Positions 4,065 through 62,000 of a stretch of 64,000 bases of DNA are shown piece after piece; the first letter of the stretch is position 1, and each line of letters starts with the position of its first letter. The notes under the pieces were generated by a model that was not told where the DNA came from, did no database searches, and worked only from the letters and a program-made list of their open reading frames with translations. The stretch is from an uncultured Acidobacteriaceae bacterium (GTDB taxonomy: Bacteria > Acidobacteriota > Terriglobia > Terriglobales > Acidobacteriaceae), in contig CAVZUP010000142.1 of NCBI GenBank assembly GCA_963778255.1, positions 73,938 to 137,937 on the forward strand. Reading direction: 5' to 3'. A program made the translations under genes and the position numbers.

Positions 4065-5030
4065 GTGGTCAAAATGGTGTTAAGCGAGAAGAAGCTCATC
4101 CAGCAGATCCGCCGCCGGGCCCGCGGAGGCCCGTCGGTGTTGACCGGCATCGGCGATGACTGCGCCGTGCTGCGCGTTCCTCCGGGACACGAGCTGCTGG
4201 TGACCACCGATTTCTCCATCGAGAACGTGCACTTTCGCCGTGACTGGCACCCTCCGGAATGGATAGGCCGTCGCTGCCTGACTCGCGGGCTGAGCGACAT
4301 CGCGGCAATGGGTGGCGAGCCTTGCGCGGCATTTCTATCCTTGGCCGTTGCCTGCGGCGTCCCGCAAAAGTGGGTGGACCGCTTCCTGAAGGGCCTGCTC
4401 GATCTCGCGGACGAATTCCATGTCCCGCTGGCCGGTGGCGACACAGCGCAGTCGCCCGCAGGCATTCAGGCGGATATCGTAGTCGTTGGCTCGGTGCCCA
4501 AGGGGAAGGCCGTTTTGCGGTCAGGCGCGCAGCCGGGCGAGCATGTCTATGTCACCGGCGAGTTGGGACGCTCCGCCGCCACGTTCTCGCATCTGAAGTC
4601 GGCGAGCGCCGAGCACTCCAGGCAATCCCGCACTCGAGGCGAGCCCCAAGCGCGGCTAGCCGTCGGCCAGATCCTGCGACGGCGCGGACTGGCTTCGGCG
4701 ATGATCGACGTGAGCGACGGCCTCTCCACCGATCTTGAACACATCTGCCAGGAGAGCCATGTGGGCGCGGAAATTGAAGCCGAATCGATTCCCAGAGCGC
4801 AGTTCGGCAAGAGTCTGGTCGCGCTGGATTTTGCCTTGCACGGCGGCGATGACTACGAACTCCTGTTCACCTCCGCCGCGAAAATCCCCAAAGAGATAGC
4901 CGGAGTTCGCATAACGCGCATAGGGCGAATCAAACGTTCCGCAGGCATGAGGCTGATCGGCCCCGACGGCAAAGCCAGGCCGCTCGCGGCGAGAGGCTGG
5001 GAACACTTCAAAGGCAATTTGAAACCTTGA
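4065..5030 (+). CDS. thiL: thiamine-monophosphate kinase
   Basis: GIGDDCAVL, TTDFSIENVHF and AIR-synthase-like fold motifs. Start could be 4065, 4074 or 4077. Confidence 0.85.
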   Translation: MVKMVLSEKKLIQQIRRRARGGPSVLTGIGDDCAVLRVPPGHELLVTTDFSIENVHFRRDWHPPEWIGRRCLTRGLSDIAAMGGEPCAAFLSLAVACGVPQKWVDRFLKGLLDLADEFHVPLAGGDTAQSPAGIQADIVVVGSVPKGKAVLRSGAQPGEHVYVTGELGRSAATFSHLKSASAEHSRQSRTRGEPQARLAVGQILRRRGLASAMIDVSDGLSTDLEHICQESHVGAEIEAESIPRAQFGKSLVALDFALHGGDDYELLFTSAAKIPKEIAGVRITRIGRIKRSAGMRLIGPDGKARPLAARGWEHFKGNLKP

Positions 5031-5095
5031 AACCTGCTTCCTCCTGTGACTTTCGTTACCTGCCCGTGGTCACCTCCAGGGACTAAAGTAGGCGA

Positions 5096-5668
5096 ATGAG
5101 AAAAGCTTTTTTCCTCCTGGCGTTCAGTGTCGCGATCTTGCTTCCAGCTCTTGGCCAGACTGCGCCGGCCGACCGCGGGGTAGACAACGAGTTTGTGCAG
5201 CAGCAGTTTGGCGATCAGTTCACGATGCTGCCCGGCGTGGCCGCGGCCTTCGGTGATCTGGATGGTGACGGTGTGGAAGACGTCATCATCGCCGCGCGCT
5301 GCAAGAATCCCATGCTTGATCAGGCCGAGCACAATTACACGGTGATCGACCCCTACTACGAATTCTTCGGCTATGGCGACCCCAAGGTGACGACCACGTT
5401 CAGCGAAGGCGATCCCACGCGGCGCGGCCTGGTGGTGCTCATCATTCACGGCGCGGGCAAGGACGGCTGGCGTTCGGCAGCTCCGAAAGCTAAATACGTC
5501 ATTGTGAATCTGCCTTATAAAACCGTTTCCATCAGAAAAATGCATCTGAAAAAGAAAAACATCGAAGCCGTATACGTGGAAGAATCAGGCGAAACGGGAG
5601 AGAGCTCGGCCCTGTTCTTCGACGGCAAGAAATTCCGCTACGTCCCCATGGGCGGAGACATGCAGTAG
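5096..5668 (+). CDS. secreted hypothetical protein (signal peptide; one FG-GAP-like DLDGDGVEDV segment)
   Basis: N-terminal MRKAFFLLAFSVAILLPALGQ signal-like sequence. No family recognised. Confidence 0.55.
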   Translation: MRKAFFLLAFSVAILLPALGQTAPADRGVDNEFVQQQFGDQFTMLPGVAAAFGDLDGDGVEDVIIAARCKNPMLDQAEHNYTVIDPYYEFFGYGDPKVTTTFSEGDPTRRGLVVLIIHGAGKDGWRSAAPKAKYVIVNLPYKTVSIRKMHLKKKNIEAVYVEESGETGESSALFFDGKKFRYVPMGGDMQ

Positions 5669-5724
5669 AGATCGGCTCTCAGCTGTCAGCCATCAGTCCC
5701 CAACCCCAACCCACCGTGTGACCC

Positions 5725-5752
5725 GTGTGGCGCGGACACTCCTGTCCGCGGC
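5725..5752. repeat. GC hairpin plus CCACAC tail (reverse orientation): GTGTGG-CGCGGACA-ctcc-TGTCCGCG
   Basis: 8-bp stem read directly. Same architecture at 34071..34096 and 46021..46046. Confidence 0.65.
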
Positions 5753-5850
5753 TTTTGACTTCGTTTCTTGACCTCGATCTTCCCAGAAAACAATCCAAGA
5801 CACCACAAAGCTATTCATTCCCGCGCCAGTTTCCGCTACGATCTCAACCG

Positions 5851-7328
5851 ATGAGCTCCGCGCGCAAACCGTCCTCGCTGCTGGACACCAGAGTCATCTA
5901 CTGCGGCGACAACCTCGACCAGCTCGCCAAGCTCCCGGACCGCTGCGTCGACCTGATCTACATCGACCCGCCCTTCAATTCCAACCGCAACTATGAAGTC
6001 TTCTGGGGAGAGACCAAGGAGAAGCGCTCGTTCGACGATCGCCACGCGTCCACCCAGGCCTACATCGAATTCATGCGCCCGCGCTGCGAGCAACTCGCCC
6101 GCGTCCTCAAAGGCACGGGCAGCTTTTACTATCACTGCGACTGGCACGCCAGTCACTACGTCAAGGTGATGCTCGACCAGCTCTTCGGCGAGATGAACTT
6201 CCAAAACGAGATCGTCTGGAAGCGGACGAGCAGCCACAGTGACGCGCGTCGCCGTTTCGGCGATCAAACGGACGCCATTTTCTTCTACGGGATCGGTCGC
6301 GACTACACCTTCAACCGACAGCACGTCGAGTATTCCGAGGCCTACATCAAGTCGCACTACAGCAACGTCGATCCAGACGGGCGAAGATTCACCACGCGCG
6401 ACCTCCGCAGCCCATCACCACGCCCAAACCTCACGTACGACTACAAAGGCTACAAGCCTCATCCCAACGGTTGGTCGATCTCGCGGGAACTCATGGCCCA
6501 GTGGGATCAAGAGGGCAAGCTGTACTTCCCGCAATCAAAGGACGGCCGCATCCGCGTGAAGCGATACCTCGACGAAATGCCCGGCACGCTCGTCGGCAAC
6601 GTGTGGGACGACATCGAACCGGTCAATTCCCAAGCGGCAGAGCGCCTAGGCTATCCGACACAAAAGCCCCTTGCACTTCTGGACCGGATCATCAGAGCTT
6701 CGTCCAACGAAAACGACATCGTGCTCGACGCCTTCTGCGGGTGCGGGACTGCGCTCGTCGCTGCTCAGAACCTCGGCCGCCAGTGGATCGGAATCGATCA
6801 GTCCCCCACAGCCTGCGCGTCATGGCGAAGCGCCTCCGCAAAGACTGCAAATTTCCCGAAGACGAGAAGCTCTGGGAAATCGGGCGCGGATTCATCGTCC
6901 GCGATCTCCCGTGGACCGTCGAGAAGCTCCGCAAAATTCCACCGTTCGAATTCGAGAACTGGGCTGTCATCGCTCTCGGCGGGATCCCAAACAAAGCCCA
7001 GGTCGGAGACATGGGCATCGACGGACGCATCTATCCGCTCTCGTCGATCCCGCAGAAAAGCGGCAAAGCGGCCGGCGAGCTCGACTTCATGGACGTCTGG
7101 TATCCCCTGCAGGTGAAGCAGAAGGACAAAGCAGGCCGCCCCGATATCGACATGTTCGAAGCCGTCATGATGCGCGAGAACCGCACCAAAGGCTTCTTCA
7201 TCTCGTTCGACTTCACCAGCGACGCGCTGCACGAGATCGGGGCATTCTTCAAGCGCGAGCACAAAGTGATCGTCCCGCTAACCGTGCAAGAGATCCTAGA
7301 CGAGAGCATCGCCCAAAAGCTGGCGTGA
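5851..7328 (+). pseudogene. beta-class N4/N6 DNA methyltransferase fused to Mrr-cat-like PD-(D/E)xK domain, interrupted by a 1-nt frameshift near 6816
   Basis: Frame 1: IYIDPPFNSN (DPPF motif) ... DAFCGCGTALVAA ... GIDQSPTAC, then nonsense. Frame 3 continues RVMAKRL... with GDMGIDGRIY and YPLQVKQK nuclease-like motifs through to the stop at 7328. Confidence 0.6.
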
Positions 7329-7440
7329 TCCGGGAGCGCCCCACCTCTGACCCCTGACCCGTTTCATCACAAACCCACCCCAAGAAATCTCAATAAATCT
7401 GTTGACTTAAGCCCAGTCGTGCGCAACCATGAACGTCTAA

Positions 7441-7497
7441 TTGGGGCAGTTACGAGGCACGTCCGTCAATAGAAGACGGACCTCGCAGCTGCCCCAA
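7441..7497. other. 57-nt imperfect hairpin (9+4+7 bp stems)
   Basis: ttggggcag/ctgccccaa, cgag/ctcg and gtccgtc/gacggac pairings read directly. Lies in a 380-nt AT-richer ORF-poor spacer. Confidence 0.5.
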
Positions 7498-7621
7498 GGC
7501 CATCTTCAGCGCTCTTTGACAAGTTAACTCCTTATTCCCGAGTACTTTCCATGTAAGTCTTTATTATGGAATACTTTGCAGATGCTTATCGCTAAACCGC
7601 TAATTCTAATGGACCTAGCGA

Positions 7622-7649
7622 GGGGGTGGGGGGGGTAGGGGGGGTGGGG
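7622..7649 (+). other. G-quadruplex-forming tract G5-T-G8-TA-G7-T-G4
   Basis: Four G runs of at least 4 with 1-2-nt loops, 60 nt upstream of the ACT-domain gene. Confidence 0.6.
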
Positions 7650-7709
7650 TACGTCGCCCAGCTCTCCATCGGCAGTTTCGCAGACTGATGTAGTAATCTC
7701 CTCTCTGAA

Positions 7710-8111
7710 TTGCCTCACCACTTAAAATGCCGCGTTCTTGCGGAGCGGCTGGCGGTGTGTCAGCTTGCCTCCGACGCCGCCATCCCGGCCTGGGCGCTGG
7801 AGTGTAGATTCTTTTGCGTGGTGCGCACCTGCGATGAGCTTTCCATTGTGTGCTCTGAGGATGTCTGTTCGGAGGATCGAATTCCGGATGGGGCGCGCGA
7901 GCGCGGATGGGTGGCGCTAAAGCTCGAAGGTCCGTTCCCGTTTTCGATGACCGGCGTGCTCGCGTCGTTCCTGCAACCGCTGGCGATGGCGCAGATTCCG
8001 ATTTTTGCGATTTCCACGTTTGATACAGATTATGTGCTGATCAAGCACGAGAGCTTCGCGGCTGCGGTCGCTGCGCTGGGCTCGGCGGGGCACGAACTGG
8101 CTGTGGATTAG
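7710..8111 (+). CDS. ACT-domain (ACT_7-like) protein
   Basis: LAVCQL...WVALKLEGPFPFSMTGVLASFLQPLAMAQIPIFAISTFDTDYVLIK pattern, typical of small ACT_7 proteins. TTG start is uncertain. Confidence 0.6.
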   Translation: MPHHLKCRVLAERLAVCQLASDAAIPAWALECRFFCVVRTCDELSIVCSEDVCSEDRIPDGARERGWVALKLEGPFPFSMTGVLASFLQPLAMAQIPIFAISTFDTDYVLIKHESFAAAVAALGSAGHELAVD

Positions 8112-8221
8112 CGTAGGTGACCCGTGGCTTGGCTGGGTTGCCACTCAACCCCGTTTTTCCGCCGAACGCTGCGGTCGATTGGGCATCGCGCCGGTTGCTG
8201 TGGTGAAATAGAAGCATCGCG

Positions 8222-9241
8222 ATGACAACCAAGTCGGCGGCATGGCGCCGCAAGTTCAAGGCAATCGAGCGGGACGCTCATGGATTGTGGCAGATCCTTA
8301 AGGCTCTGGTATCTACGGATCATCCTCTGCTGGCGCATCTGATCCCGATCCGGCGCTGCAATCTGGCCTGCACTTACTGTAACGAGTTCGACAATTTTTC
8401 GAAGCCTGTGCCGACCGACGAGATGTTGCGGCGAGTGGATCGGCTGGGCGATCTGGGTACGTCCGTGATCACCATCAGCGGCGGCGAGCCGCTGCTGCAT
8501 CCGCAACTGGACGACATCATTCACCACATGCGGAGACGCCGGATCGTTTCGGGGTTGATCACCAACGGTTATCTGCTGACTGCCGACCGCATCCAGCGGC
8601 TGAACCGCTCGGGCCTGGAGTGGCTGCAGATTTCGATCGATAACGTCAATCCCGACGATGTTTCGAAGAAGAGCCTGAAAGTGCTCGATCGCAAGCTGCA
8701 ACTGCTGGCCGAGCACGCGGAATTTCACGTGAATATCAATTCCGTTGTGGGCGGAGGCGTCAGCCATCCCCAGGACGCGCTCACTATCGGCCGGCGCGCC
8801 ATGGAACTCGGGTTCAGTTCAACCGTGGGCATCATTCACGACGGCTCGGGACAGGTGCAGCCGTTGAACGACGAAGAACGGCGCGTGTATCACGAGATGC
8901 AGGGACTGGAAAAACGCAGCTTCACGCGCGTGCATGCATTCCAGGACAACATTGCGCTAGGCCGTCCGAATCAGTGGCGCTGCCGCGCTGGTGGCCGCTA
9001 CCTCTATATCTGCGAGGATGGACTGGTGCATTACTGCTCGCAGCAGCGCGGCTATCCCGGCATTCCGCTGGAGAAATATACGATTGCCGATTTGCGTCGC
9101 GAGTTTCATACCGAAAAGGCGTGCGCTCCGCACTGCACGGTATCGTGCGTGCATCAGGTGTCGGTCCTCGATGCCTGGCGCGCACCGCAATGGCCAGCGC
9201 CCGCATCGAAGCCGGCCAGCGGCCTGGTGCACATCGAGTAA
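8222..9241 (+). CDS. radical SAM protein with Cys-rich C-terminal (twitch/SPASM-like) region
   Basis: [10 protein letters not shown] (CxxxCxxC), GGEPLL, and C-terminal [19 protein letters not shown]...CAPHCTVSC. Confidence 0.8.
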
Positions 9242-39295: not shown

Positions 39296-41095
39296 ATGAG
39301 AAGAGTGCTGCCTGGCGAGCGAGTACAACGAGCGCGGGATCATTCTCGCGTGCTGGCTTATTGTTTCGTTGTCCTAGCGTTACTGGCGCCGACCGGAGTT
39401 TGGGCGGCGGATGGTTACGACGTCACTATCGAGCACAGCGTGCCGGTAAAGATGCGGGATGGGATCGTGTTGCGTGCAGATATTTACCGTCCAAAGACGG
39501 ACGGTAAGTTCCCGGTGCTGTTGACACGCACACCCTATGACAAAACTGCGACGTTGGATTTTGGCCTGAAGGCCGCGGCCCGCGGCTATGTGCTGATCGC
39601 ACAGGATGTCCGGGGAAGATATGCCTCGCAAGGGGATTGGTATCCGTTCAAATACGAATCGCAGGACGGGTACGACACCATTGAGTGGGCGGCAGCGCTT
39701 CCGTATTCGAACGGAAAGGTTGGGATGTACGGCGGTTCCTACGTGGGCGCGACGCAGTATCTGGCTGCGATTGCCAAGCCGCCTCATCTGGCCGGAATTT
39801 GCCCCAACTATACGGCATCCAACTATCACGATGGCTGGACTTATCAGGGTGGAGCATTCGAGCAGTGGTTCAACGAGTCGTGGACGACGATACTGGCGGA
39901 AAATACCATGCGCCGCCGCGTCGAGTCAGGCAGCGACGCTATTAACTGGATACAGACGCTGCCGCTGCTGTCTTATCCTGTGCGCGAAGCACCCGGGGCT
40001 GCGGGACTGGCGCCGTATTTCTCCGACTGGCTTCTGCATCCCAACTACGACGACTATTGGAAGCAGTGGTCGATCGAAGATCACTATGCGCAGATTCAAG
40101 TTCCGGTGTTCAGCCTGGGTGCGTGGTACGACATTTTTCTTGGCGGGACGCTAAGAAATTATGTCCGTCTCAAGAACGAGGCCGAAACCGAGGCGGCGCG
40201 GCGTGGCCAGCGGCTGATGATCTACGTTGGGGGCCATGCTGGTGGATGGAACGACATGAAAGTGGGAGCCGTTGATTTTGGAGATAAGCTGCCGTTCGAT
40301 CTATATGAAGAGACGCTGCGCTGGTACGACAATCTCCTGAAGGGAATCCCGAATGGAGTGAACCAGGAGAAGCCGGTAAGAATCTTCGTCATGGGCACCA
40401 ACGAATGGCGCGAAGAAGATGACTGGCCGCTGACGCGCGCAAAGGCGACCCGGTATTACCTGCGGTCGACCAAGCCGGCGAACGGTCTTGAAGGAGGCGG
40501 CACGCTGAGTACGTCCGCTCCGGCTGAAGAGAAACCCGACCAATATGTGTACGATCCGAACGACGCGGTGCCCACGATTGGCGGACCGCTTTGCTGCGGA
40601 GCGCTGCCAACGGGGATTGGTCCAGAGGATCAGCGGCCGGCGGAGGTGCGAGGCGACGTGCTCGTATTCACTTCGCCGGCATTTACGCAGAACACCGAGG
40701 TTACGGGTCCGGTTTCGCTCGACTTGTATGTAAGCAGTTCCGCGGTGGACACAGACTTTACAGGGAAGCTGGTTGACGTGTGGCCAAACGGATTTGCTCA
40801 GAATTTAACGGAAGGAATTCTGCGCTTGCGCTACCGCAATTCGCCGGAGAAGCCGGAACTTGGAAATCCCGGGGAGATTTATCACATTGCGGTTGATCTT
40901 TGGGCGACAAGCAATGTTTTCCTGGCAGGACATAGACTGCGGCTCGAGGTTTCCAGCAGCAACTTTCCGCGATTCGATCGAAACCTGAATACGGGCGAGG
41001 AACCGGCGCGTGGAACGCACATGGCCAAAGCGACCAACGTGATTTACCACGACAAAGGCAGACCGTCGGCTCTGATTCTCCCTATTGTGCCGTAG
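39296..41095 (+). CDS. CocE/NonD family (S15 X-Pro dipeptidyl-peptidase-like) hydrolase, secreted
   Basis: MRDGIVLRADIYRP...FPVLLTRTPY...GMYGGSYVG and a C-terminal jelly-roll region. Confidence 0.85.
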   Translation: MRRVLPGERVQRARDHSRVLAYCFVVLALLAPTGVWAADGYDVTIEHSVPVKMRDGIVLRADIYRPKTDGKFPVLLTRTPYDKTATLDFGLKAAARGYVLIAQDVRGRYASQGDWYPFKYESQDGYDTIEWAAALPYSNGKVGMYGGSYVGATQYLAAIAKPPHLAGICPNYTASNYHDGWTYQGGAFEQWFNESWTTILAENTMRRRVESGSDAINWIQTLPLLSYPVREAPGAAGLAPYFSDWLLHPNYDDYWKQWSIEDHYAQIQVPVFSLGAWYDIFLGGTLRNYVRLKNEAETEAARRGQRLMIYVGGHAGGWNDMKVGAVDFGDKLPFDLYEETLRWYDNLLKGIPNGVNQEKPVRIFVMGTNEWREEDDWPLTRAKATRYYLRSTKPANGLEGGGTLSTSAPAEEKPDQYVYDPNDAVPTIGGPLCCGALPTGIGPEDQRPAEVRGDVLVFTSPAFTQNTEVTGPVSLDLYVSSSAVDTDFTGKLVDVWPNGFAQNLTEGILRLRYRNSPEKPELGNPGEIYHIAVDLWATSNVFLAGHRLRLEVSSSNFPRFDRNLNTGEEPARGTHMAKATNVIYHDKGRPSALILPIVP

Positions 41096-41146
41096 GTTGG
41101 AGCCGTCGCGGGAAGTGGGGTGATGCGGGCTTTGCTTTGGCACCAG

Positions 41147-41452
41147 CAAAAATAGAGAGTCCCGAGGTGATGTTGATCTCATTCGTCTCGGCCAGTAGCT
41201 CGCGTTAGACCCTTGCTGACCTTATTCCTACAACTCCCTTGCGGGTTTCATTGTAAGCCGATCCTTGCTTGGGCTCCGGGCTCACCGCCAACCGGATAAA
41301 CCAGTTCAACGCCTCGGGACTCTATCCTGCCTTCGACAGAGGCTCCTGTTCTCCTCGACCAGCGCTTAGCTATAGACCCTTGCTCGCCCTCCCAAACTCA
41401 CCTCGCGGTTGTCTGAGTGACTACGCTTGAGCCCCGGACGCTGCACCAACCG
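41147..41452 (-). ncRNA. candidate structured RNA: two tandem paralogous units of about 168 nt
   Basis: No ORF of 60 aa or more in any frame. Units 41185..41293 and 41353..41452 are about 65-70% identical. Minus-strand GNRA hairpins covary (ccc-GCAA-ggg versus acc-GCGA-ggt). A 14-16-bp closing stem (41152..41167 with 41312..41325) is followed by a U tract on the minus strand. Confidence 0.3.
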
Positions 41453-41619
41453 GAAAAACTTCAGAACGTGTCAAAGAACGATTATGGTTTTAACACTTCT
41501 GTTTTTTACGTCAACGAAATTCATGCGTCTGTAACTTCTTATTCATCAATGGAGTGCAGGTCGTGCACAGGCGGGTGAACCGGAAATTGTGCAGGGGGCC
41601 GTTGGCGGCTGGCAAGTGT

Positions 41620-41721
41620 CCAGTATTCATACGGTTTTACGCGGTATCAGGACGGTGGCATGCGGTTTTTGGCGGTTCCAACCGGCTGTGCAAATCGTTG
41701 TCTTAGAGGCATGAATACTGG
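41620..41721 (+). promoter_or_regulatory. 11-bp perfect inverted repeat enclosing six CGGY motifs phased at 10-11 bp
   Basis: ccagtattcat (41620..41630) and atgaatactgg (41711..41721). CGGT starts at 41632, 41642, 41653, 41663 and 41673, and CGGC at 41683. Confidence 0.35.
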
Positions 41722-41883
41722 CGATTTGCTTCTGGGGCAAGCTTGCAGGTGGTGGTGGAAGAGTTGACTTCCCGATCGAAAAAACGGCTTAACCACGGGG
41801 TACACGGAGGGGCACAGGGGAAAGCTCAGGCGTGGGAGGCTGAATCCACTACAATACGGGGTCTCAGAGCTGGAGGCGTTTTC

Positions 41884-43419
41884 ATGCGAAGGGTGCGAAT
41901 TTCCTCAATCGTTGGCTGGGTGTGCGTTCTTGCGCTGGTCGCAACAGCGGCGGGGCAGAGTGCGGAGGAGAAGACGGCTCGGTATTTTGAGTCGGTGCGG
42001 CATCAGCCGGGGCTGCTGCTGGCGTTTTTGCAGCAGATGCCTAAGGGCGGCGATCTGCATGTCCACCTGAGCGGGGCGATCTATGCGGAGAGCTTCATCG
42101 ATTGGGCGTCGGAGAACGCTCTTTGCGTGGATCGGAGCACTTCGAAGCTGATCCATGCGGCTTGCGATTCGTGCGAGCCGTATCAGAACAAGCCATCGGT
42201 GCGCTGCGCGTATCAGGATTATGTTCTTTACGAACAACTGGTGGACGCGTGGTCGATGCGCAATTGGCATCGCGAGGAGGAATCGGGGCACGACCATTTT
42301 TTTGCGACGTTTGAGAAGTTTGGTCCGGCGATGGAGAAGCATGTGGGAGATGCGTTGGCCGAGGTGGCGTCACGGGCGGCGGCCGATCACTTGCAATATG
42401 TGGAGTTGATGCACACAGCGGATGGCGGGCAGGCGGCTAGTCTGGGCTCGAAGATTGGGTGGGACGACGACTTCGTTCGATTCCGCGACAAACTGCTGGC
42501 TGGCGGAATGGCGGAGGTGGTGGCATCGGTGCGCAGGCAGCTGGACTCGGATGAAGCCCGGAAGAAAGAGGTGTTGCATTGCGGGACGGCGGCGGCTGCT
42601 GCGGGATGCGAGGTTACGCTGCACTATCTGTATCAAGTGCTGCGGGGTCTGCCGCGGGAGCAGGTGTTTGCGCAGATCCTGCTGGGATTTGAGTTGACGA
42701 AGGCTGATCCGCGATTTGTGGGGTTCAATCTGGTGATGCCGGAAGATTATTACGTCCCGATGCACGACTTTGATCTGCATATGCGGATTATTGAGGCGTT
42801 GCACAAGTTTTATCCGGCAGCGCATGTGTCGCTTCATGCGGATGAACTGTGGATGGGGTTGGTTCCTCCGGAGGGGCTGCGCTTTCATATTCGTGAATCG
42901 ATTGAACGTGCGGGTGCGGAACGGATTGGGCATGGCGTGGCCGTGATGAGCGAAGAGGATCCGATTGGGCTGCTCCGGGAGATGGCTAAGAAGAATGTGC
43001 TGGTTGAGATTTGCCTGACTTCGAACGATGTGATTCTGGGGGTGAGCGGCGACCAGCATCCCTTGCCGGTGTACATGAAATACGGCGTGCCGGTGGCGCT
43101 CGCTACCGACGATGAGGGTGTTTCGCGCAGCGATATGACGCACGAATATCTGCGAGCGGTCGAGAGCTATGGTCTGTCGTATGCTGAGCTGAAACGCATG
43201 GCGCGGGAGAGCCTGGAACACAGTTTTGTTTCGGGTGATAGTCTTTGGAGCGGCGGGGGAAGCGGTGGGCGCGAGTTGCGGCGGACGGCGGCATGCTTGG
43301 ACGAGTCTGCGGGCGGTCGCGTTTCGGGGAAATGTGAGACGTGGATGGCGGCGAATGAGCGGGCCCGGGTACAGTGGCAACTGGAGCGGGCGTTTGCCGA
43401 GTTTGAGAAGAAATTTTGA
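41884..43419 (+). CDS. secreted adenosine deaminase-family amidohydrolase (ADA-like)
   Basis: Signal peptide MRRVRISSIVGWVCVLALVATAAGQ. DLHVHLSG, SLHADE, ERIGHG and ATDDEG metal/catalytic motifs. ATG at 41884 chosen. Confidence 0.8.
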   Translation: MRRVRISSIVGWVCVLALVATAAGQSAEEKTARYFESVRHQPGLLLAFLQQMPKGGDLHVHLSGAIYAESFIDWASENALCVDRSTSKLIHAACDSCEPYQNKPSVRCAYQDYVLYEQLVDAWSMRNWHREEESGHDHFFATFEKFGPAMEKHVGDALAEVASRAAADHLQYVELMHTADGGQAASLGSKIGWDDDFVRFRDKLLAGGMAEVVASVRRQLDSDEARKKEVLHCGTAAAAAGCEVTLHYLYQVLRGLPREQVFAQILLGFELTKADPRFVGFNLVMPEDYYVPMHDFDLHMRIIEALHKFYPAAHVSLHADELWMGLVPPEGLRFHIRESIERAGAERIGHGVAVMSEEDPIGLLREMAKKNVLVEICLTSNDVILGVSGDQHPLPVYMKYGVPVALATDDEGVSRSDMTHEYLRAVESYGLSYAELKRMARESLEHSFVSGDSLWSGGGSGGRELRRTAACLDESAGGRVSGKCETWMAANERARVQWQLERAFAEFEKKF

Positions 43420-46177: not shown

Positions 46178-46693
46178 ATGGAAGTCGGGAAAAATAACGG
46201 TGGTGGTTTGCACACGATTGACGTGCAGGCCAATAGCATTTCGGCGCAGCAGGTGGTGAAGGCGGCGCACGAAGAACTCCTCCAGTTGATGCGGCAGCGG
46301 GCCGAGATCATGAAGCGCATTGGCACGGTGAAACAGACCATTGCCGGATTGGCGAATCTGTTCGGTGAAGAAGTGCTCGGTGACGACTTGCTGGAACTGA
46401 TCGACCGCAAGCCGAATGGGCGCCAGCCGGGGTTTACTAAAGCTTGCCGGCGGGTGCTGATGGACGTGCGGCGTCCACTGGGAGCGCGCGAGGTTTGCCT
46501 GGAATTGGAACGATATGCTCCGGCGATTCTGGCGCGGCATAAGGATCCGCTGGCCTCGGTCACGACCGTTTTGAATCGCCTGGTGGATTATGGCGAGGCC
46601 CGGAGTTTGAGCAACGATCGCGGGCGGCGGGTTTGGGAGTGGATTAGCGAGGGTGCGGCGGCGGACGCGATGGCGTCGCGGAGAACGGCTTGA
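46178..46693 (+). CDS. hypothetical protein (coiled-coil N-terminus, possible winged-helix C-terminus)
   Basis: GGAGGA RBS 8 nt before the ATG at 46178. No family recognised. Confidence 0.5.
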   Translation: MEVGKNNGGGLHTIDVQANSISAQQVVKAAHEELLQLMRQRAEIMKRIGTVKQTIAGLANLFGEEVLGDDLLELIDRKPNGRQPGFTKACRRVLMDVRRPLGAREVCLELERYAPAILARHKDPLASVTTVLNRLVDYGEARSLSNDRGRRVWEWISEGAAADAMASRRTA

Positions 46694-46822
46694 GGCCCAG
46701 CCTCTGAAATGGTGTTCTAGTTCGATGCGGCATCGCTGAAGCCCGCGCCACTCAGCGGCTAAAGCCTTCGCTGAATACATGCCCGTCATCGCAGCGGTCA
46801 ACCGCTGCGCCACACAAAATCA

Positions 46823-47536
46823 CTATGCAGGCAAGAGCTTTCCTTTTTCCAAGTGACGGGTTGCGTGCGCGTACTGGGCGGCGTGGGGATCGTGGGTTAC
46901 CATTACGATCGTCTTGTGAAAACTTTCGTTCAGCCGTTTCAAAATCTCCAGAATTTCGGTTGCTGAATTACTGTCCAGGTCGCCGGTAGGTTCGTCGGCT
47001 AGGATCAGCGTGGGGTCGCTGACGATGGCGCGTGCGATGGCTACGCGCTGCTCCTGTCCGCCGGAGAGCTGCTTGGGCAGGTGATGGACTCGATCCTCGA
47101 GTCCCACTAGCTTGAGCGCGGTCAATACGTGATCGCGGCGCTGCTGTGGGGTCATTTTGGTCAGGAGCAGGGGCAGTTCCACGTTTTCAAAGGCGGTCAA
47201 AACCGGGATCAAATTAAAAGTCTGGAACACGTAGCCTACGTGGGTGTTGCGCCACTTTGCGGACTGGCTATCGTTGAGACGGAAAATATTTTCATCCATC
47301 ACCAGCAGTTCGCCGGAGGTGGGACGATCGATGGCGGCGATCATGTTGAGCAGGGTCGTCTTGCCCGATCCGGAGGGACCCATTAACGCGAGAAACTCGC
47401 CGCCGGCGATGTCGATGGAGACGTTATCGAGCGCGGTTACCTGGAAAGCGTCGCGCTTGAAAATCTTGCTTACGCCGCGGGCCTGGACTACCTTACTGCC
47501 CACGGCTGGCTGTGTTGGCGTCGTCATTGCACTCAT
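46823..47536 (-). CDS. ABC transporter ATP-binding protein (MacB/LolD type)
   Basis: [35 protein letters not shown]. Confidence 0.9.
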
Positions 47537-60539: not shown

Positions 60540-62000
60540 CTACCTCTTGGGGCGATAGATGTCGGTGGCCTGCCCGTAAAAGATTTCGGCCGACTCCATC
60601 ATTGTCTCCGATAACGTGGGGTGCGGGTGGATGGTCATGCCGATATCGGCCGCCAGCGCGCACATTTCGATGGCCAGCACTCCTTCGGCGATCAACTCGC
60701 CGGCGCCGGGGCCGACGATGCCTACGCCCAGCACTCGCTCCGTCTTCGGATCGATGAGAAGCTTGGTCATACCTTCGGGGCGATCGAGAGTGATGGCGCG
60801 ACCGGATGCTGCCCATGGGAACTTCGCGACCGTGATTTCGCGTCCTTGATCTTTGGCCTGCGTTTCGGTGAGTCCGGCCCACGCGATTTCCGGGTCGGTA
60901 AAGACGACGGCGGGAATCGCGTTTGGCTCGAAGGCTACCTTGTGTCCGGCGATAGCTTCCACGGCGCAGCGGCCTTCGTGCATCGCCTTGTGGGCGAGCA
61001 TCGGTTCGCCGGCTACGTCGCCTATGGCGTAGATTGTGGGGTCAGCGGTCTGGCGCTGACCGTTGATTTCGATGAATCCCTTGGGATTGACCTTTACTTG
61101 CGTTTTGTCGAGGCCGGGGATCTCGGAATTCGGGCGGCGTCCTACGGACATCAGTACGCGGTCGAAGACCTGGTCGTTTTCTTTTACGTTCGGACCGTCG
61201 AGCGTTACGCGAATACCTGTTACTTCATCCTTGAGCGACTTGACGGTGGTATTCAGCAGGATGGTGGAGAAAAGTTTTTCCAGGCGTTTGTGCAGAGGCA
61301 GCACCAGATCGCGGTCGGCTCCGGGGAGCAAGCCGGGCATCATCTCGACGCAGGTCACCTTGGTGCCGAGCGTGGCGTAGACCGATCCTAGTTCCAATCC
61401 GATGTAACCGCCGCCTATGACGAGCAGCGTTTTTGGAATGTCGGGCAGATCGAGTGCGCCAGTGGAATCCATGAGGCGCGGGCTGTCGAGTTTGAGGCTG
61501 GGCACGACGGTGGGGCGCGATCCGGTCGCGATGATGATGCGGTCGAAGGTTAGGTTCTCTTCATTATTATTGGCCCCACTGTTATTGGCGCCAGCGGTCT
61601 TGTTGCCGCCAGTCTTTGTGACTTTGAGCGTGGTGGAATTTACGAATGCGGCTTTGCCTCGCACAAACTCGACTTTGCGTTGTTTCGAGAGTTGTCCAAG
61701 TCCGCCGGTCAGCTTGTTGACGACGCTCTCTTTCCATCCGCGAAGTTTGTTGAGATCGACTTTGGGCTCGCCGAATTCGATGCCCCAGTTCTTGGCCTGC
61801 TCGGCTTCTTCGAGCAGCTTAGCCACGTGCAGCAAGGCCTTGGACGGGATGCAGCCGCGATAGAGGCAGACGCCGCCGGGATTCGCTTCGGGATCGATCA
61901 GCGTAACTTTCATGCCAAGGTCGGCAGCCAGAAATGCGGCGGCATATCCGCCGGGACCGCCGCCGATTACTGCAATACGGAGATTGGAAGAGTTCGTCAT
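60540..62000 (-). CDS. lpdA: dihydrolipoyl dehydrogenase (E3)
   Basis: [20 protein letters not shown] redox disulfide, HPHPTLSE. Confidence 0.95.

Follow-up and report, generated by a model that had tools for sequence, protein, structure and literature searches.

A stand-alone gene for a probable two-domain non-coding RNA, very abundant in soil metatranscriptomes and carried by uncultured Terriglobales

6S RNA binds the sigma-70 holoenzyme, has a central bubble (about 40 nt from the 5' end) that mimics an open promoter, and templates product RNAs of 14-20 nt. In Escherichia coli its 5' leader is processed off, and Bacillus carries two forms, 6S-1 and 6S-2. Ms1, an actinobacterial RNA of about 300 nt encoded by a stand-alone gene, is extremely abundant in non-growing cells and binds the RNA polymerase core. 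Ms1 and 6S are both named as RNA polymerase-binding RNAs in PMC11077062. In the Bacillus cereus group, two tandem 6S genes (ssrSA-ssrSB), with units of about 130-190 nt, are co-transcribed from one promoter (PMC7726162), and 6S-flavo is an example of a diverged 6S RNA that escapes the main 6S model (PMC2864571). The raiA motif is a further structured bacterial RNA (PMC10861870). In Acidobacteria, comparative genomics has provided two non-coding RNA candidates, Acido-1 and Acido-Lenti-1, both of which are in Rfam (PMC2864571).

The locus described here lies in the window, i.e. the whole 64-kb (64,000-nt) stretch of DNA that was analysed, in a gap between a gene for an S15/PepX (CocE-family) peptidase (39296..41095) and one for an adenosine-deaminase-family protein (41884..43419). 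A preliminary description of the sequence had called this gap ORF-free and had placed in it, at 41147-41460, two related units forming a candidate structured RNA. All of the elements it named were found where it had put them, and no ORF of 60 aa or more is present from 41182 to 41743. The feature is at the position claimed but is larger than claimed, as both homology and RNA coverage span roughly 41150 to 41480, and a conserved promoter and an upstream box extend the conserved feature to 41569. The segment 41500-41890 folds no better than its shuffles (z = -0.24). We consider it very probable that the locus is a stand-alone minus-strand gene for one non-coding RNA, about 310 nt long when mature and built of two homologous rod-like domains.

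The minus strand had been proposed as the coding strand for this RNA, and folding agrees with that choice (z = -4.3 against shuffles for the minus strand, versus z = +1.0 for the plus strand). The encoded RNA occupies positions 41156..41467 (about 312 nt), and all features below are given on the minus strand. Domain 1 (D1, 126 nt, 41342..41467) is predicted by RNAalifold and pair counts to be an irregular rod; its two core strands, 41459-41425 and 41383-41348, are conserved, and its tip varies. The tip ends in a GNRA hairpin, ACC-GCGA-GGU (41400..41409), whose three stem pairs have all undergone compensatory change (U-A in 39 sequences and C-G in 35, for example) and whose tetraloop is GCAA, GAAA or GUAA in relatives. 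A conserved inter-domain linker, CUCUGUCGAAGGCAGGAU (41324..41341), contributes the 3' strand (41337-41329) of a helix termed P1. In domain 2 (D2, 168 nt, 41156..41323), the closing helix is accompanied by another one rich in compensatory changes, by a conserved core (strands 41301-41267 and 41216-41181) and by a tip that varies. Its apical hairpin, CCC-GCAA-GGG (41236..41245), has a nearly invariant GCAA loop, and its stem pairs in 96% of cells with some compensatory changes; the stems of both GNRA hairpins that had been picked out before (41245..41236 and 41409..41400) do covary across homologues. Similarly, the long-range stem noticed earlier corresponds to a 12-bp closing helix with two covarying pairs, formed by 41156-41167 and 41312-41323. 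Its 3' strand is CCUCGGGACUCU (41156..41167), its positions pair in 100% of cells, and the compensatory changes include, for instance, U-A in 47 sequences and C-G in 31.

These alignment and pair analyses were conducted on 79 sequences. The structure comprises 102 predicted pairs, for which 98.8% of cells are able to pair, versus 37-48% when the partners are slid. Compensatory changes affect 22 pairs (334 cells), a result equalled by none of 500 shuffles. The core of each domain is an almost invariant irregular duplex with invariant G-U runs and small conserved internal loops, one of which contains a palindromic CCGG in both domains.

The two units are indeed related, as had been claimed: aligned on the minus strand, they show a mean column identity of 74%. 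Direct repeats join 41182-41217 to 41349-41384 (72% identical) and 41267-41301 to 41425-41459 (77% identical), and the 12-mer AGCAAGGGTCTA occurs twice, versus 0.10 occurrences expected by chance. With nhmmer profiles, which we used both for domain homology and for copy counts, the D2 profile matches D1 in all 79 aligned sequences (E = 1e-10 to 1e-13). Tandem Repeats Finder reported no repeats in the region because the units are too diverged. Sequence comparison thus provides good support for two homologous domains that would have arisen through an internal duplication.

Upstream of D1, the promoter guessed previously (TTGACG, a 16-nt spacer and TAAAAC) has its arrangement conserved in 112 homologous loci. 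The -35 hexamer TTGACG (41509..41514) is kept as TTGAC(T/G) in the 112 upstream regions, the -10 hexamer TAAAAC (41487..41492; TAnAAn in homologues) retains its position and sequence class in 112 loci, and the spacer, 16 nt long in the window, measures 16-17 nt across the 112 regions. The -10 hexamer lies 7-8 nt upstream of the far edge, at 41479, of an RNA-seq shoulder. Further upstream, with its centre some 81 bp from the inferred start, is a palindrome-like box, TGTGCACGACCTGCAC (41554..41569, an exact match in the window), whose half-sites are GTGCA and TGCAC. The pattern TGTGNA-N5-TGCAC is found in 104 of the 120 loci among the matches listed, and the box stands 5' of the RNA gene in every aligned locus; it may be a site for a dimeric transcription factor. 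A simple promoter and terminator scan picked up neither the real promoter, because its -10 hexamer is without the final T, nor the terminator, because the "loop" of the latter is 144 nt long.

A 13-nt leader, CGUUCUUUGACAC (41468..41480), precedes D1. It is almost invariant (columns 2-6 and 9-12 are invariant across the 79 sequences) and pairs with the linker to form P1, whose pairs form in 99.6% of cells, with changes that are one-sided and wobble-compatible only. The leader is present in at most 1-2% of molecules: RNA depth drops about 50-fold at 41467/41468, and the small shoulder continues to 41479. To judge from the contigs, the leader appears to be cut off, giving a mature 5' end at 41467. 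At the other end, the closing helix is followed by a terminator-like U-rich tail, CUAUUUUUG (41147..41155), which is mostly missing from the mature RNA, as depth stops between 41152 and 41163. The U-run noted beforehand is located at 41147-41151 and is also kept in homologues, where the proposed terminator holds as well. Strand, transcription start and processing are all deduced from contigs.

The transcript is extremely deep in metatranscriptomes. Its summed depth over 41150-41470 amounts to 0.5-7 million in four metatranscriptomes from four studies, these values being summed k-mer depths of Logan contigs, which pool many related species and are not normalised expression values. The flanks in the same metatranscriptomes reach 0-48 per 667-nt bin across 20 kb, with one bin at 278. 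In soil and peat metatranscriptomes, the RNA is 10^4 to 10^6 times deeper than neighbouring genes in summed k-mer depth, which is not normalised expression. In addition, 14 RNA runs from ten studies contain 79-93% of the sampled 31-mers of the RNA. It is well supported that the RNA is either very stable or very strongly expressed. The 5' boundary is sharp at 41467, with Illumina adapter immediately past 41459-41468 in four runs. Coverage breaks off sharply on the high-coordinate side and fades gradually on the low-coordinate side, and adapter orientation is identical in every run with adapter junctions (X5, X6 and X17); both of these properties fit a minus-strand RNA.

A motif scan of genomic loci covered at least 120 loci, and the RNA gene is present in 120 of 120 among the matches listed. 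These loci come from at least 116 different assemblies, all of them MAGs among the matches listed, and 119 of the 120 listed are labelled Acidobacteriota/Terriglobia, including Sulfotelmatobacter, Acidoferrum and 'gp1' lineages. OY970199.1 is an example of a complete genome that carries the RNA. Where a locus has the full element, the whole 335 nt are 73-97% identical, and the flanks are dissimilar.

No universal or conserved neighbouring gene was found across the loci. Neighbours are unrelated metabolic and transport genes that follow sub-clade synteny only; by eye, they seem to include genes for acyl-CoA carboxyltransferase, an RND pump, cysteine synthase, adenosine deaminase and purine nucleoside phosphorylase. 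Fau (5-formyltetrahydrofolate cyclo-ligase), the neighbour of 6S in E. coli, had no tblastn match in the window or in any of the loci. The gene downstream of the RNA gene is convergent in the window, as are the commonest conserved downstream neighbours across loci, so there is nothing to regulate in cis. A riboswitch or cis-regulatory leader, which had already been thought unlikely, is therefore rejected.

The preliminary description had suggested a novel structured RNA, to be checked by an Rfam scan, and that scan came back empty, with no described family matched. At gathering score, Rfam 15 gave no match over the whole 64-kb window (6S, Ms1 and Acido-1 included), so there is no tRNA or tmRNA in it. 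ARAGORN, run on the fetched loci only, detected no tmRNA and just scattered tRNA calls. With E up to 10 on 951, 181 and 166 nt (the region and each domain), Rfam models gave chance matches only, at 10-14 bits and to unrelated families. A literature search that included exact sequence words of the RNA found no description of it.

Ms1 is comparable to the RNA in being about 300 nt long, extremely abundant and encoded by a stand-alone gene. However, the RNA shows no sequence or model similarity to Ms1, belongs to another phylum and alone has an internal two-domain duplication. Polymerase binding would here be an analogy. We rejected the identification as Ms1 RNA, for which there was no Rfam match, as 119 of the 120 loci among the matches listed are labelled Acidobacteriota/Terriglobia and Ms1 is actinobacterial. 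Acido-1 (RF01686) and Acido-Lenti-1 (RF01687) were rejected too, with no match at any threshold used; what they share with the RNA is being acidobacterial non-coding RNA candidates.

Our explanation of the locus runs as follows. Transcription would start at about 41480 from the conserved sigma-70-type promoter. The 13-nt leader, paired with the inter-domain linker, would then be taken off to leave the mature 5' end at 41467, and the 3' end would lie at about 41152-41162, past the 12-bp closing helix and the U-run. The product would act in trans. The two near-identical core modules may be protein-binding surfaces, in which case the RNA would be an abundant ribonucleoprotein scaffold or sponge. 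By analogy, it would most likely be a global regulator of slow-growing or dormant cells comparable to 6S or Ms1, regulating RNA polymerase in their manner with two binding modules per molecule. We put this mechanism forward as a tentative possibility only, and gene identity and mechanism taken together stand at an even balance between right and wrong. The analogy draws on the extreme abundance, the rod shape, the stand-alone gene with its own sigma-70-type promoter, the apparent loss of a 5' leader, as in E. coli 6S, and the two diverged copies in some genomes, reminiscent of Bacillus 6S-1 and 6S-2. It also has precedents in the tandem 6S genes of the Bacillus cereus group (PMC7726162) and in 6S-flavo, which the main 6S model misses (PMC2864571). 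Counting against it are the lack of a conserved gene near the RNA across loci, the absence of a 6S or Ms1 model match, the shortness of D1 (just 126 nt) and the small size of the predicted internal loops. The conserved GNRA tetraloops and internal loops are just as compatible with a compact tertiary fold or an RNA-RNA assembly as with protein binding.

Such a fold is the basis of another explanation, which we regard as rather unlikely: the RNA would be a large tertiary-folded molecule working mainly as RNA (catalytic, ligand-binding or self-assembling, of the OLE, ROOL, GOLLD or raiA kind), its two domains forming an intramolecular pseudo-dimer in which the GNRA tetraloops contact the conserved internal loops. 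The core duplexes are nearly all invariant, G-U pairs and internal loops included, which exceeds what a plain helix needs, and GNRA tetraloops are kept at both tips though the stems vary. The palindromic CCGG in one conserved internal loop per domain and the lack of a conserved protein gene nearby are also in line with this explanation, and a compact particle that resists nucleases would fit the very high steady-state level. Like OLE, ROOL, GOLLD and the raiA motif, the RNA is a conserved, structured, stand-alone and lineage-restricted RNA, but it has no Rfam homology to them and is simpler, with two rods derived from internal duplication in its predicted shape and no multi-way junctions. In addition, the top pairs by APC-corrected mutual information are predicted helix pairs or clade effects, and the same analysis detected no tertiary or inter-domain covariation, including between loops and candidate receptors. 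Finally, a natural gene with domain 1 only, observed in one genome (locus L060), speaks against this explanation.

Under another hypothesis, the locus would be a diverged 6S locus, with tandem paralogues under one promoter (like ssrSAB in the Bacillus cereus group), each of which binds holoenzyme and templates product RNAs. We consider this clearly unlikely. Tandem co-transcribed 6S genes are known (PMC7726162), as are diverged 6S lineages that escape the main model, such as 6S-flavo (PMC2864571), and the RNA resembles ssrSA-ssrSB in having two paralogous units and one promoter. It also resembles 6S as an abundant, stand-alone, rod-shaped non-coding RNA with a sigma-70-type promoter and, in some genomes, two diverged copies; the gene has a promoter and a terminator-like end of its own, and the very high abundance of its stable transcript is likewise a 6S-type trait. 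D2, at 168 nt, is inside the 6S size range, and its most conserved, weakly paired region begins about 40 nt from the domain 5' end. However, D1 is short for a 6S RNA (126 nt), the halves remain joined in one mature molecule, and the covariance models for 6S (RF00013) and 6S-flavo (RF01685) are without match to the 181-nt and 166-nt domain sequences at E up to 10, so that membership of the 6S family finds no support from these models. Polymerase binding and product RNAs would, here again, be analogies. E. coli 6S did not match the profiles of either domain. A 9-mer, CGGTTGGTG, seen by eye to be common to the RNA and E. coli 6S, is too short to count. The large central bubble of 6S is not predicted either: both domains are rods in which predicted internal loops do not exceed about 5 x 6 nt, and mean pair probabilities in the centre are high. 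The short central helices never vary, and covariation thus neither supports nor refutes central pairing.

A stand-alone pair of sRNAs had also been considered, and we examined it in two forms: a base-pairing sRNA pair, or one sRNA using the conserved single-stranded linker as a seed for mRNAs. Both together are highly improbable. Tandem paralogous sRNAs exist in other bacteria (PrrF1/PrrF2, Qrr), and Pseudomonas PrrF1-PrrF2/PrrH similarly has two homologous head-to-tail units and a longer transcript over both. The 18-nt linker GUCGAAGGCAGGAU, for its part, is a conserved segment that removal of the leader would leave single-stranded. But unlike in PrrF1-PrrF2/PrrH, the units lack promoters and terminators of their own, the joint RNA dominates, and the domains are long closed rods rather than short seed-bearing sRNAs. 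A single promoter and a single terminator-like end serve both units, and coverage is unbroken over the junction: linker depth is as high as that of the domains, and contigs bridge it (for example, 41276-41370 and 41302-41376) without any real dip. We thus rejected two independent sRNA genes. Moreover, the 310 nt are almost wholly paired internally, and it is mainly the helices, not an accessible seed, that are conserved; the U-tail retained by Hfq-dependent sRNAs is for the most part missing from the RNA, and an abundance of 10^4 to 10^6 times that of mRNAs (in summed k-mer depth) is far above that of typical stoichiometric sRNA regulators.

As regards copy number, the element is single-copy in the 64-kb window, and 115 of 121 sources have exactly one D1-D2 pair. 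Two diverged copies are found in some genomes, and additional partial copies occur at a few loci (L035, L037 and L080). In the source metagenome, DNA depth is 17 for the flanks, 21-36 for most of the gene and 60 in one bin, i.e. 1 to 2 times the flanks, rising to 3.6 times in the bin with the highest conservation. The alternative of a mobile repeat bounded by terminal inverted repeats, such as a MITE, or of a cis-regulatory leader, can be dismissed: the partial copies and the 12-bp inverted repeat 41156-41167/41312-41323 (described earlier as a 15-bp terminal inverted repeat) might suggest a mobile repeat, but the repeat surrounds D2 only, leaving the other half of the conserved element outside, and shows the covariation of an RNA helix. 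The window has a single copy, DNA depth is mostly 1 to 2 times that of the flanks, the element has its own conserved promoter and no match in plasmid or viral collections, and a leader would have no cis target next to a convergent gene.

Terriglobales Acidobacteria, most of them uncultured, belong to the dominant bacteria in acidic soils and peat; among the matches listed, finds of the RNA are so far confined to uncultured Terriglobales lineages. The RNA may represent an undescribed class of bacterial RNAs, the 'twin-rod' RNAs, which would rank with the most abundant non-ribosomal transcripts of peat, wetland and forest soils and form a new particle that shares no ancestry with 6S, Ms1 or any Rfam family, a proposal for and against which we see equal chances. 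If it is true, the particle would be an assembly of RNA free of protein or, alternatively, a ribonucleoprotein with two sites by which dormant soil cells store or silence a housekeeping enzyme. For RNA biology, this is a large and strongly covarying family with an unusual internal duplication and invariant G-U runs, and a good target for structure determination and for the search for a new RNA-protein partnership. The RNA probably takes up a noticeable, unannotated share of reads in soil metatranscriptomes, which a family model would allow to be recognized. Should it be a functional analogue of 6S or Ms1, control of RNA polymerase by an RNA would have arisen independently once more. Its abundance across studies suggests that the RNA is likely to be central to the soil life of its carriers, where it may act in slow growth or dormancy.

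The 788-bp gap between an S15/PepX (CocE-family) peptidase gene (39296..41095, plus strand) and an adenosine-deaminase-family gene (41884..43419, plus strand) contains no ORF of at least 60 aa, in agreement with the preliminary description, which had also recognized two paralogous units in it. A repeat finder recovered these units, matching 41182-41217 with 41349-41384 (72% identity) and 41267-41301 with 41425-41459 (77% identity). Aligned on the minus strand, they are 74% identical and have in common the 12-mer AGCAAGGGTCTA (2 occurrences vs. 0.10 expected). The GNRA hairpins, long-range stem and U-run reported earlier are likewise present at their described positions.

The secondary structure of the corresponding RNA is strongly supported. 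For 41140-41480, the predicted folding energy of the minus strand is -136 kcal/mol, a value that none of 100 shuffles reached (z = -4.3); the plus strand does not stand out (z = +1.0). In an alignment of 79 homologous sequences (pairwise <95% identical, mean column identity 79%, ~150 invariant columns), the RNAalifold consensus consists of two closed domains with 102 pairs in total. Standard pairs are formed in 98.8% of the cells, versus 37-48% when the 3' partners are slid by 1-3 columns, and changes on both sides affect 22 pairs (334 cells), with none of 500 shuffles reaching any of five measures. For example, domain 1 begins with a pair that reads C-G in 31 sequences, G-C in 27 and U-A in 17, and at one pair of the domain-2 closing helix, 47 sequences have U-A and 31 have C-G. 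Both apical stems and the second domain-2 helix are likewise rich in compensatory changes. The pairs with the highest corrected mutual information are the same covarying helix pairs, and no inter-domain or loop-receptor covariation emerged from this measure in the alignment. On the minus strand, domain 1 (41467..41342, 126 nt) is joined by an 18-nt linker (41341..41324) to domain 2 (41323..41156, 168 nt). The core of each domain is an irregular duplex that hardly varies (in domain 1, GUUUUUCCGGUUGGUGC...UCCGGGGCUCAAGC paired with GCAAGGGUCUAUAGC...GCUGGUCGAGGAGAAC, with an equivalent core in domain 2). Four consecutive G-U/U-G pairs in it are invariant, and its small internal loops are conserved; beyond it lies a variable extension with a GNRA tetraloop at its tip. 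For 40 homologues, ensemble pair probabilities describe rods with small loops only.

Scanning one genome per species with the pattern TCCGGTTGG-N(50-80)-AGCAAGGGTCTA identified at least 120 loci in at least 116 different assemblies. All 120 loci listed belong to metagenome-assembled genomes (MAGs) and none to a cultured isolate; 119 are labelled Acidobacteriota, Terriglobia, Terriglobales or Acidobacteriaceae, including Candidatus Sulfotelmatobacter, Candidatus Acidoferrum and 'gp1' lineages. The remaining one lies on a 6.5-kb contig (DATLKM010000040.1) labelled Candidatus Binatia; this label probably reflects misbinning, not occurrence in a second phylum. When the minus strand of 41500..41130 is used as blastn query, nearly all loci align over 41482/41492 to 41148, with 73-97% identity for those holding the whole span and with unrelated flanks. 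The element is one conserved unit of ~335 nt and not a local oddity. The short unit always precedes the long one, and nhmmer profiles of both units detect exactly one pair of domains in 115 of 121 sources (window included). As the domain-2 profile matches every domain 1 (E = 1e-10 to 1e-13), the two halves represent an ancient internal duplication. The RNA constitutes a family without earlier annotation that, within the genomes sampled, appears to be limited to uncultured Terriglobales.

Several loci depart from this anatomy. In each of four MAGs, two copies lie on separate contigs (locus pairs L014/L070, L039/L054, L078/L083 and L043/L120); in the one pair compared, L078 and L083, the copies are different sequence subtypes, which suggests paralogous versions comparable to 6S-1 and 6S-2. 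Locus L060 (7123-7363, minus strand) is a natural single-domain gene, which retains upstream box, promoter, leader and domain 1 in full but has lost domain 2 in an almost precise deletion, with ...GUUGAACGGAACUCUUUAUUUUUU left in front of a CTCTTAG heptamer array. This copy could be decaying, or could indicate that domain 1 is able to work alone. In L080 (5981-6916, a long-read MAG), the gene is directly followed by a head-to-tail array (period ~212 nt) with four extra copies of the last ~70 nt of domain 2, each comprising the closing strand, the U-run and ~135 nt of downstream sequence; this may reflect local amplification or an assembly artefact. Finally, L035 has an extra domain-2-only copy (7704-7849) ~750 nt downstream of the full gene, and L037 an extra 3' fragment of ~50 nt (2825-2877) ~1.3 kb from it.

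The RNA is transcribed at an extraordinary level and is extremely abundant in soil and peat metatranscriptomes. Fourteen runs from ten studies (peat, wetland, soil) contain 79-93% of its sampled 31-mers. When contigs of four runs from four studies were mapped to the window, 4,650-8,550 short contigs per run stacked at ~41150-41470, with a summed word depth of 0.5-7 million and zero in the flanks; these are k-mer depths summed over assembled contigs of many related species, which give presence and an order of magnitude but are not normalised as expression values. Over 20 kb in 667-nt bins, the RNA bin reaches 0.8-1.7 million versus 0-48 in the others, except for one bin at 278 (46341-47007, in one wetland run), the sole other notable RNA bin in this span. 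DNA depth in the metagenome holding the window is 17 in the flanks, 21-36 over most of the gene and 60 in one bin; the metatranscriptome signal therefore reflects RNA and not copy number.

Both domains are transcribed as one RNA, with no real dip in the linker: depth there is flat at ~4.1 million in one run, the dips in the other three (up to ~2.5-fold) are limited to variable columns, and individual contigs span the junction (e.g., 41276-41370 and 41302-41376). The structured minus-strand RNA gene of the preliminary description holds, while its option of an sRNA pair gives way, given continuous depth and bridging contigs, to a single molecule. At the high-coordinate end, depth falls sharply (~50-fold from 41464-41467 to 41468-41471), Illumina adapter directly follows 41459 and 41463-41468, and a shoulder of at most 1-2% extends to 41479. 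At the low-coordinate end, depth changes gradually (41152 to 41183), and adapter is found before 41159-41164. This asymmetry, an abrupt run-off end opposite a gradual, random-primed one, is expected of a minus-strand RNA. Similarly, adapter junctions seen in three runs (X5, X6, X17) have the P5/read-1 adapter at the low end and the read-2 adapter at the high end, an orientation which, as read from the adapter sequences, indicates minus-strand RNA if the libraries were dUTP-stranded. Rare RNA contigs (within 41175-41463; depth 3-150 vs. millions) skip 65-95 nt within a domain, and others jump from a high coordinate to a lower one (e.g., 41462 to 41336 with an inserted CTTTA, which reads as a domain-1 3' end fused to a domain-1 5' start). 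Such contigs may result from chimeric assembly of the homologous domains, from template switching or from domain-number variants in other species. Two DNA contigs (runs X4 and X8) likewise skip 89-103 nt of domain 2.

The promoter candidate proposed earlier (TTGACG, 16 nt, TAAAAC) is present, and its arrangement is kept in an alignment of 112 upstream regions: TTGAC(T/G), a 16-17 nt spacer, TAnAAn, 7-8 nt, then an almost invariant CGTTCTTTGACA. With the -35 at 41514-41509 and the -10 at 41492-41487 (minus strand), the conserved spacing places the start at ~41480, where the RNA-seq shoulder ends. The resulting 13-nt leader (41480-41468, minus strand) is complementary to GUCGAAGGC, part of the linker (41337-41329); the predicted pairs occur in 99.6% of the cells, and their changes are one-sided and wobble-compatible only. 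As the leader is absent from ~99% of molecules, 5' processing probably occurs at the base of domain 1, where the putative cut site A-N/N-U-U (cut between the Ns) resembles the RNase E preference. At the 3' end, the 12-bp domain-2 closing helix is followed by a U-rich tract kept in homologues. Further upstream, a box TGTGNA-N5-TGCAC is found in 104 of the 120 loci listed, and precedes the RNA gene in every locus aligned. In the window it reads TGTGCACGACCTGCAC (41569-41554, minus strand), centred ~81 bp before the putative start. It is palindrome-like (GTGCA-N5-TGCAC), is followed by sequence that is A/T-rich by eye, and is a candidate site for control by a dimeric transcription factor. One-mismatch matches at 42399-42415 and 61289-61304 are weaker and chance-like.

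These data show a stand-alone, structured, trans-acting RNA that is highly expressed or very stable and comprises two equivalent conserved modules. The modules may serve as binding surfaces: their invariance includes G-U pairs and loop nucleotides, while tips and closing helices vary freely by compensation. Any specific mechanism is tentative at best. The one we prefer, itself doubtful, is an RNA that would accumulate in slow-growing or dormant cells and bind protein at two sites, in analogy to 6S RNA or Ms1 and their binding to RNA polymerase. Abundance, rod shape, a sigma-70-type promoter of its own, a probably processed leader and two diverged copies in some genomes (four locus pairs) speak for this model; tandem co-transcribed 6S genes occur in the Bacillus cereus group (PMC7726162), and diverged 6S RNAs such as 6S-flavo are known to escape the main model (PMC2864571). 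Against the model, neither the RNA nor its domains show model or profile similarity to 6S RNA, the predicted pairing has no large central bubble, and the two halves stay joined. No gene for 5-formyltetrahydrofolate cyclo-ligase, the ssrS neighbour in E. coli, was found in the window or the locus DNA retrieved. The main rival, which we consider unlikely, is that the RNA works via its own tertiary fold or self-assembly; its conserved GNRA tetraloops and internal loops, and the absence of any linked protein gene, suggest this reading.

Other identities were rejected. A cis-regulatory element is contradicted, as the preliminary description anticipated for a riboswitch, by the convergent downstream gene in the window and the likewise convergent commonest conserved downstream neighbours; gene neighbours differ between sub-clades. 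At gathering score, Rfam 15 matched nothing in the entire window, and it gave nothing above chance (E up to 10) for the region or each domain alone, including to Acido-1 and Acido-Lenti-1, both Rfam families (PMC2864571); a full-text literature search, exact sequence words included, found no description of the RNA. The mobile element (MITE) once offered as an option is contradicted by single-copy occurrence, stable anatomy and absence from plasmid and viral collections.

The finding is real and exceeds what the preliminary description expected, and we hold it very probable that the locus is a single two-domain non-coding RNA gene. The RNA is notable for its unexpected scale, for host organisms that dominate an important habitat and for being directly testable.
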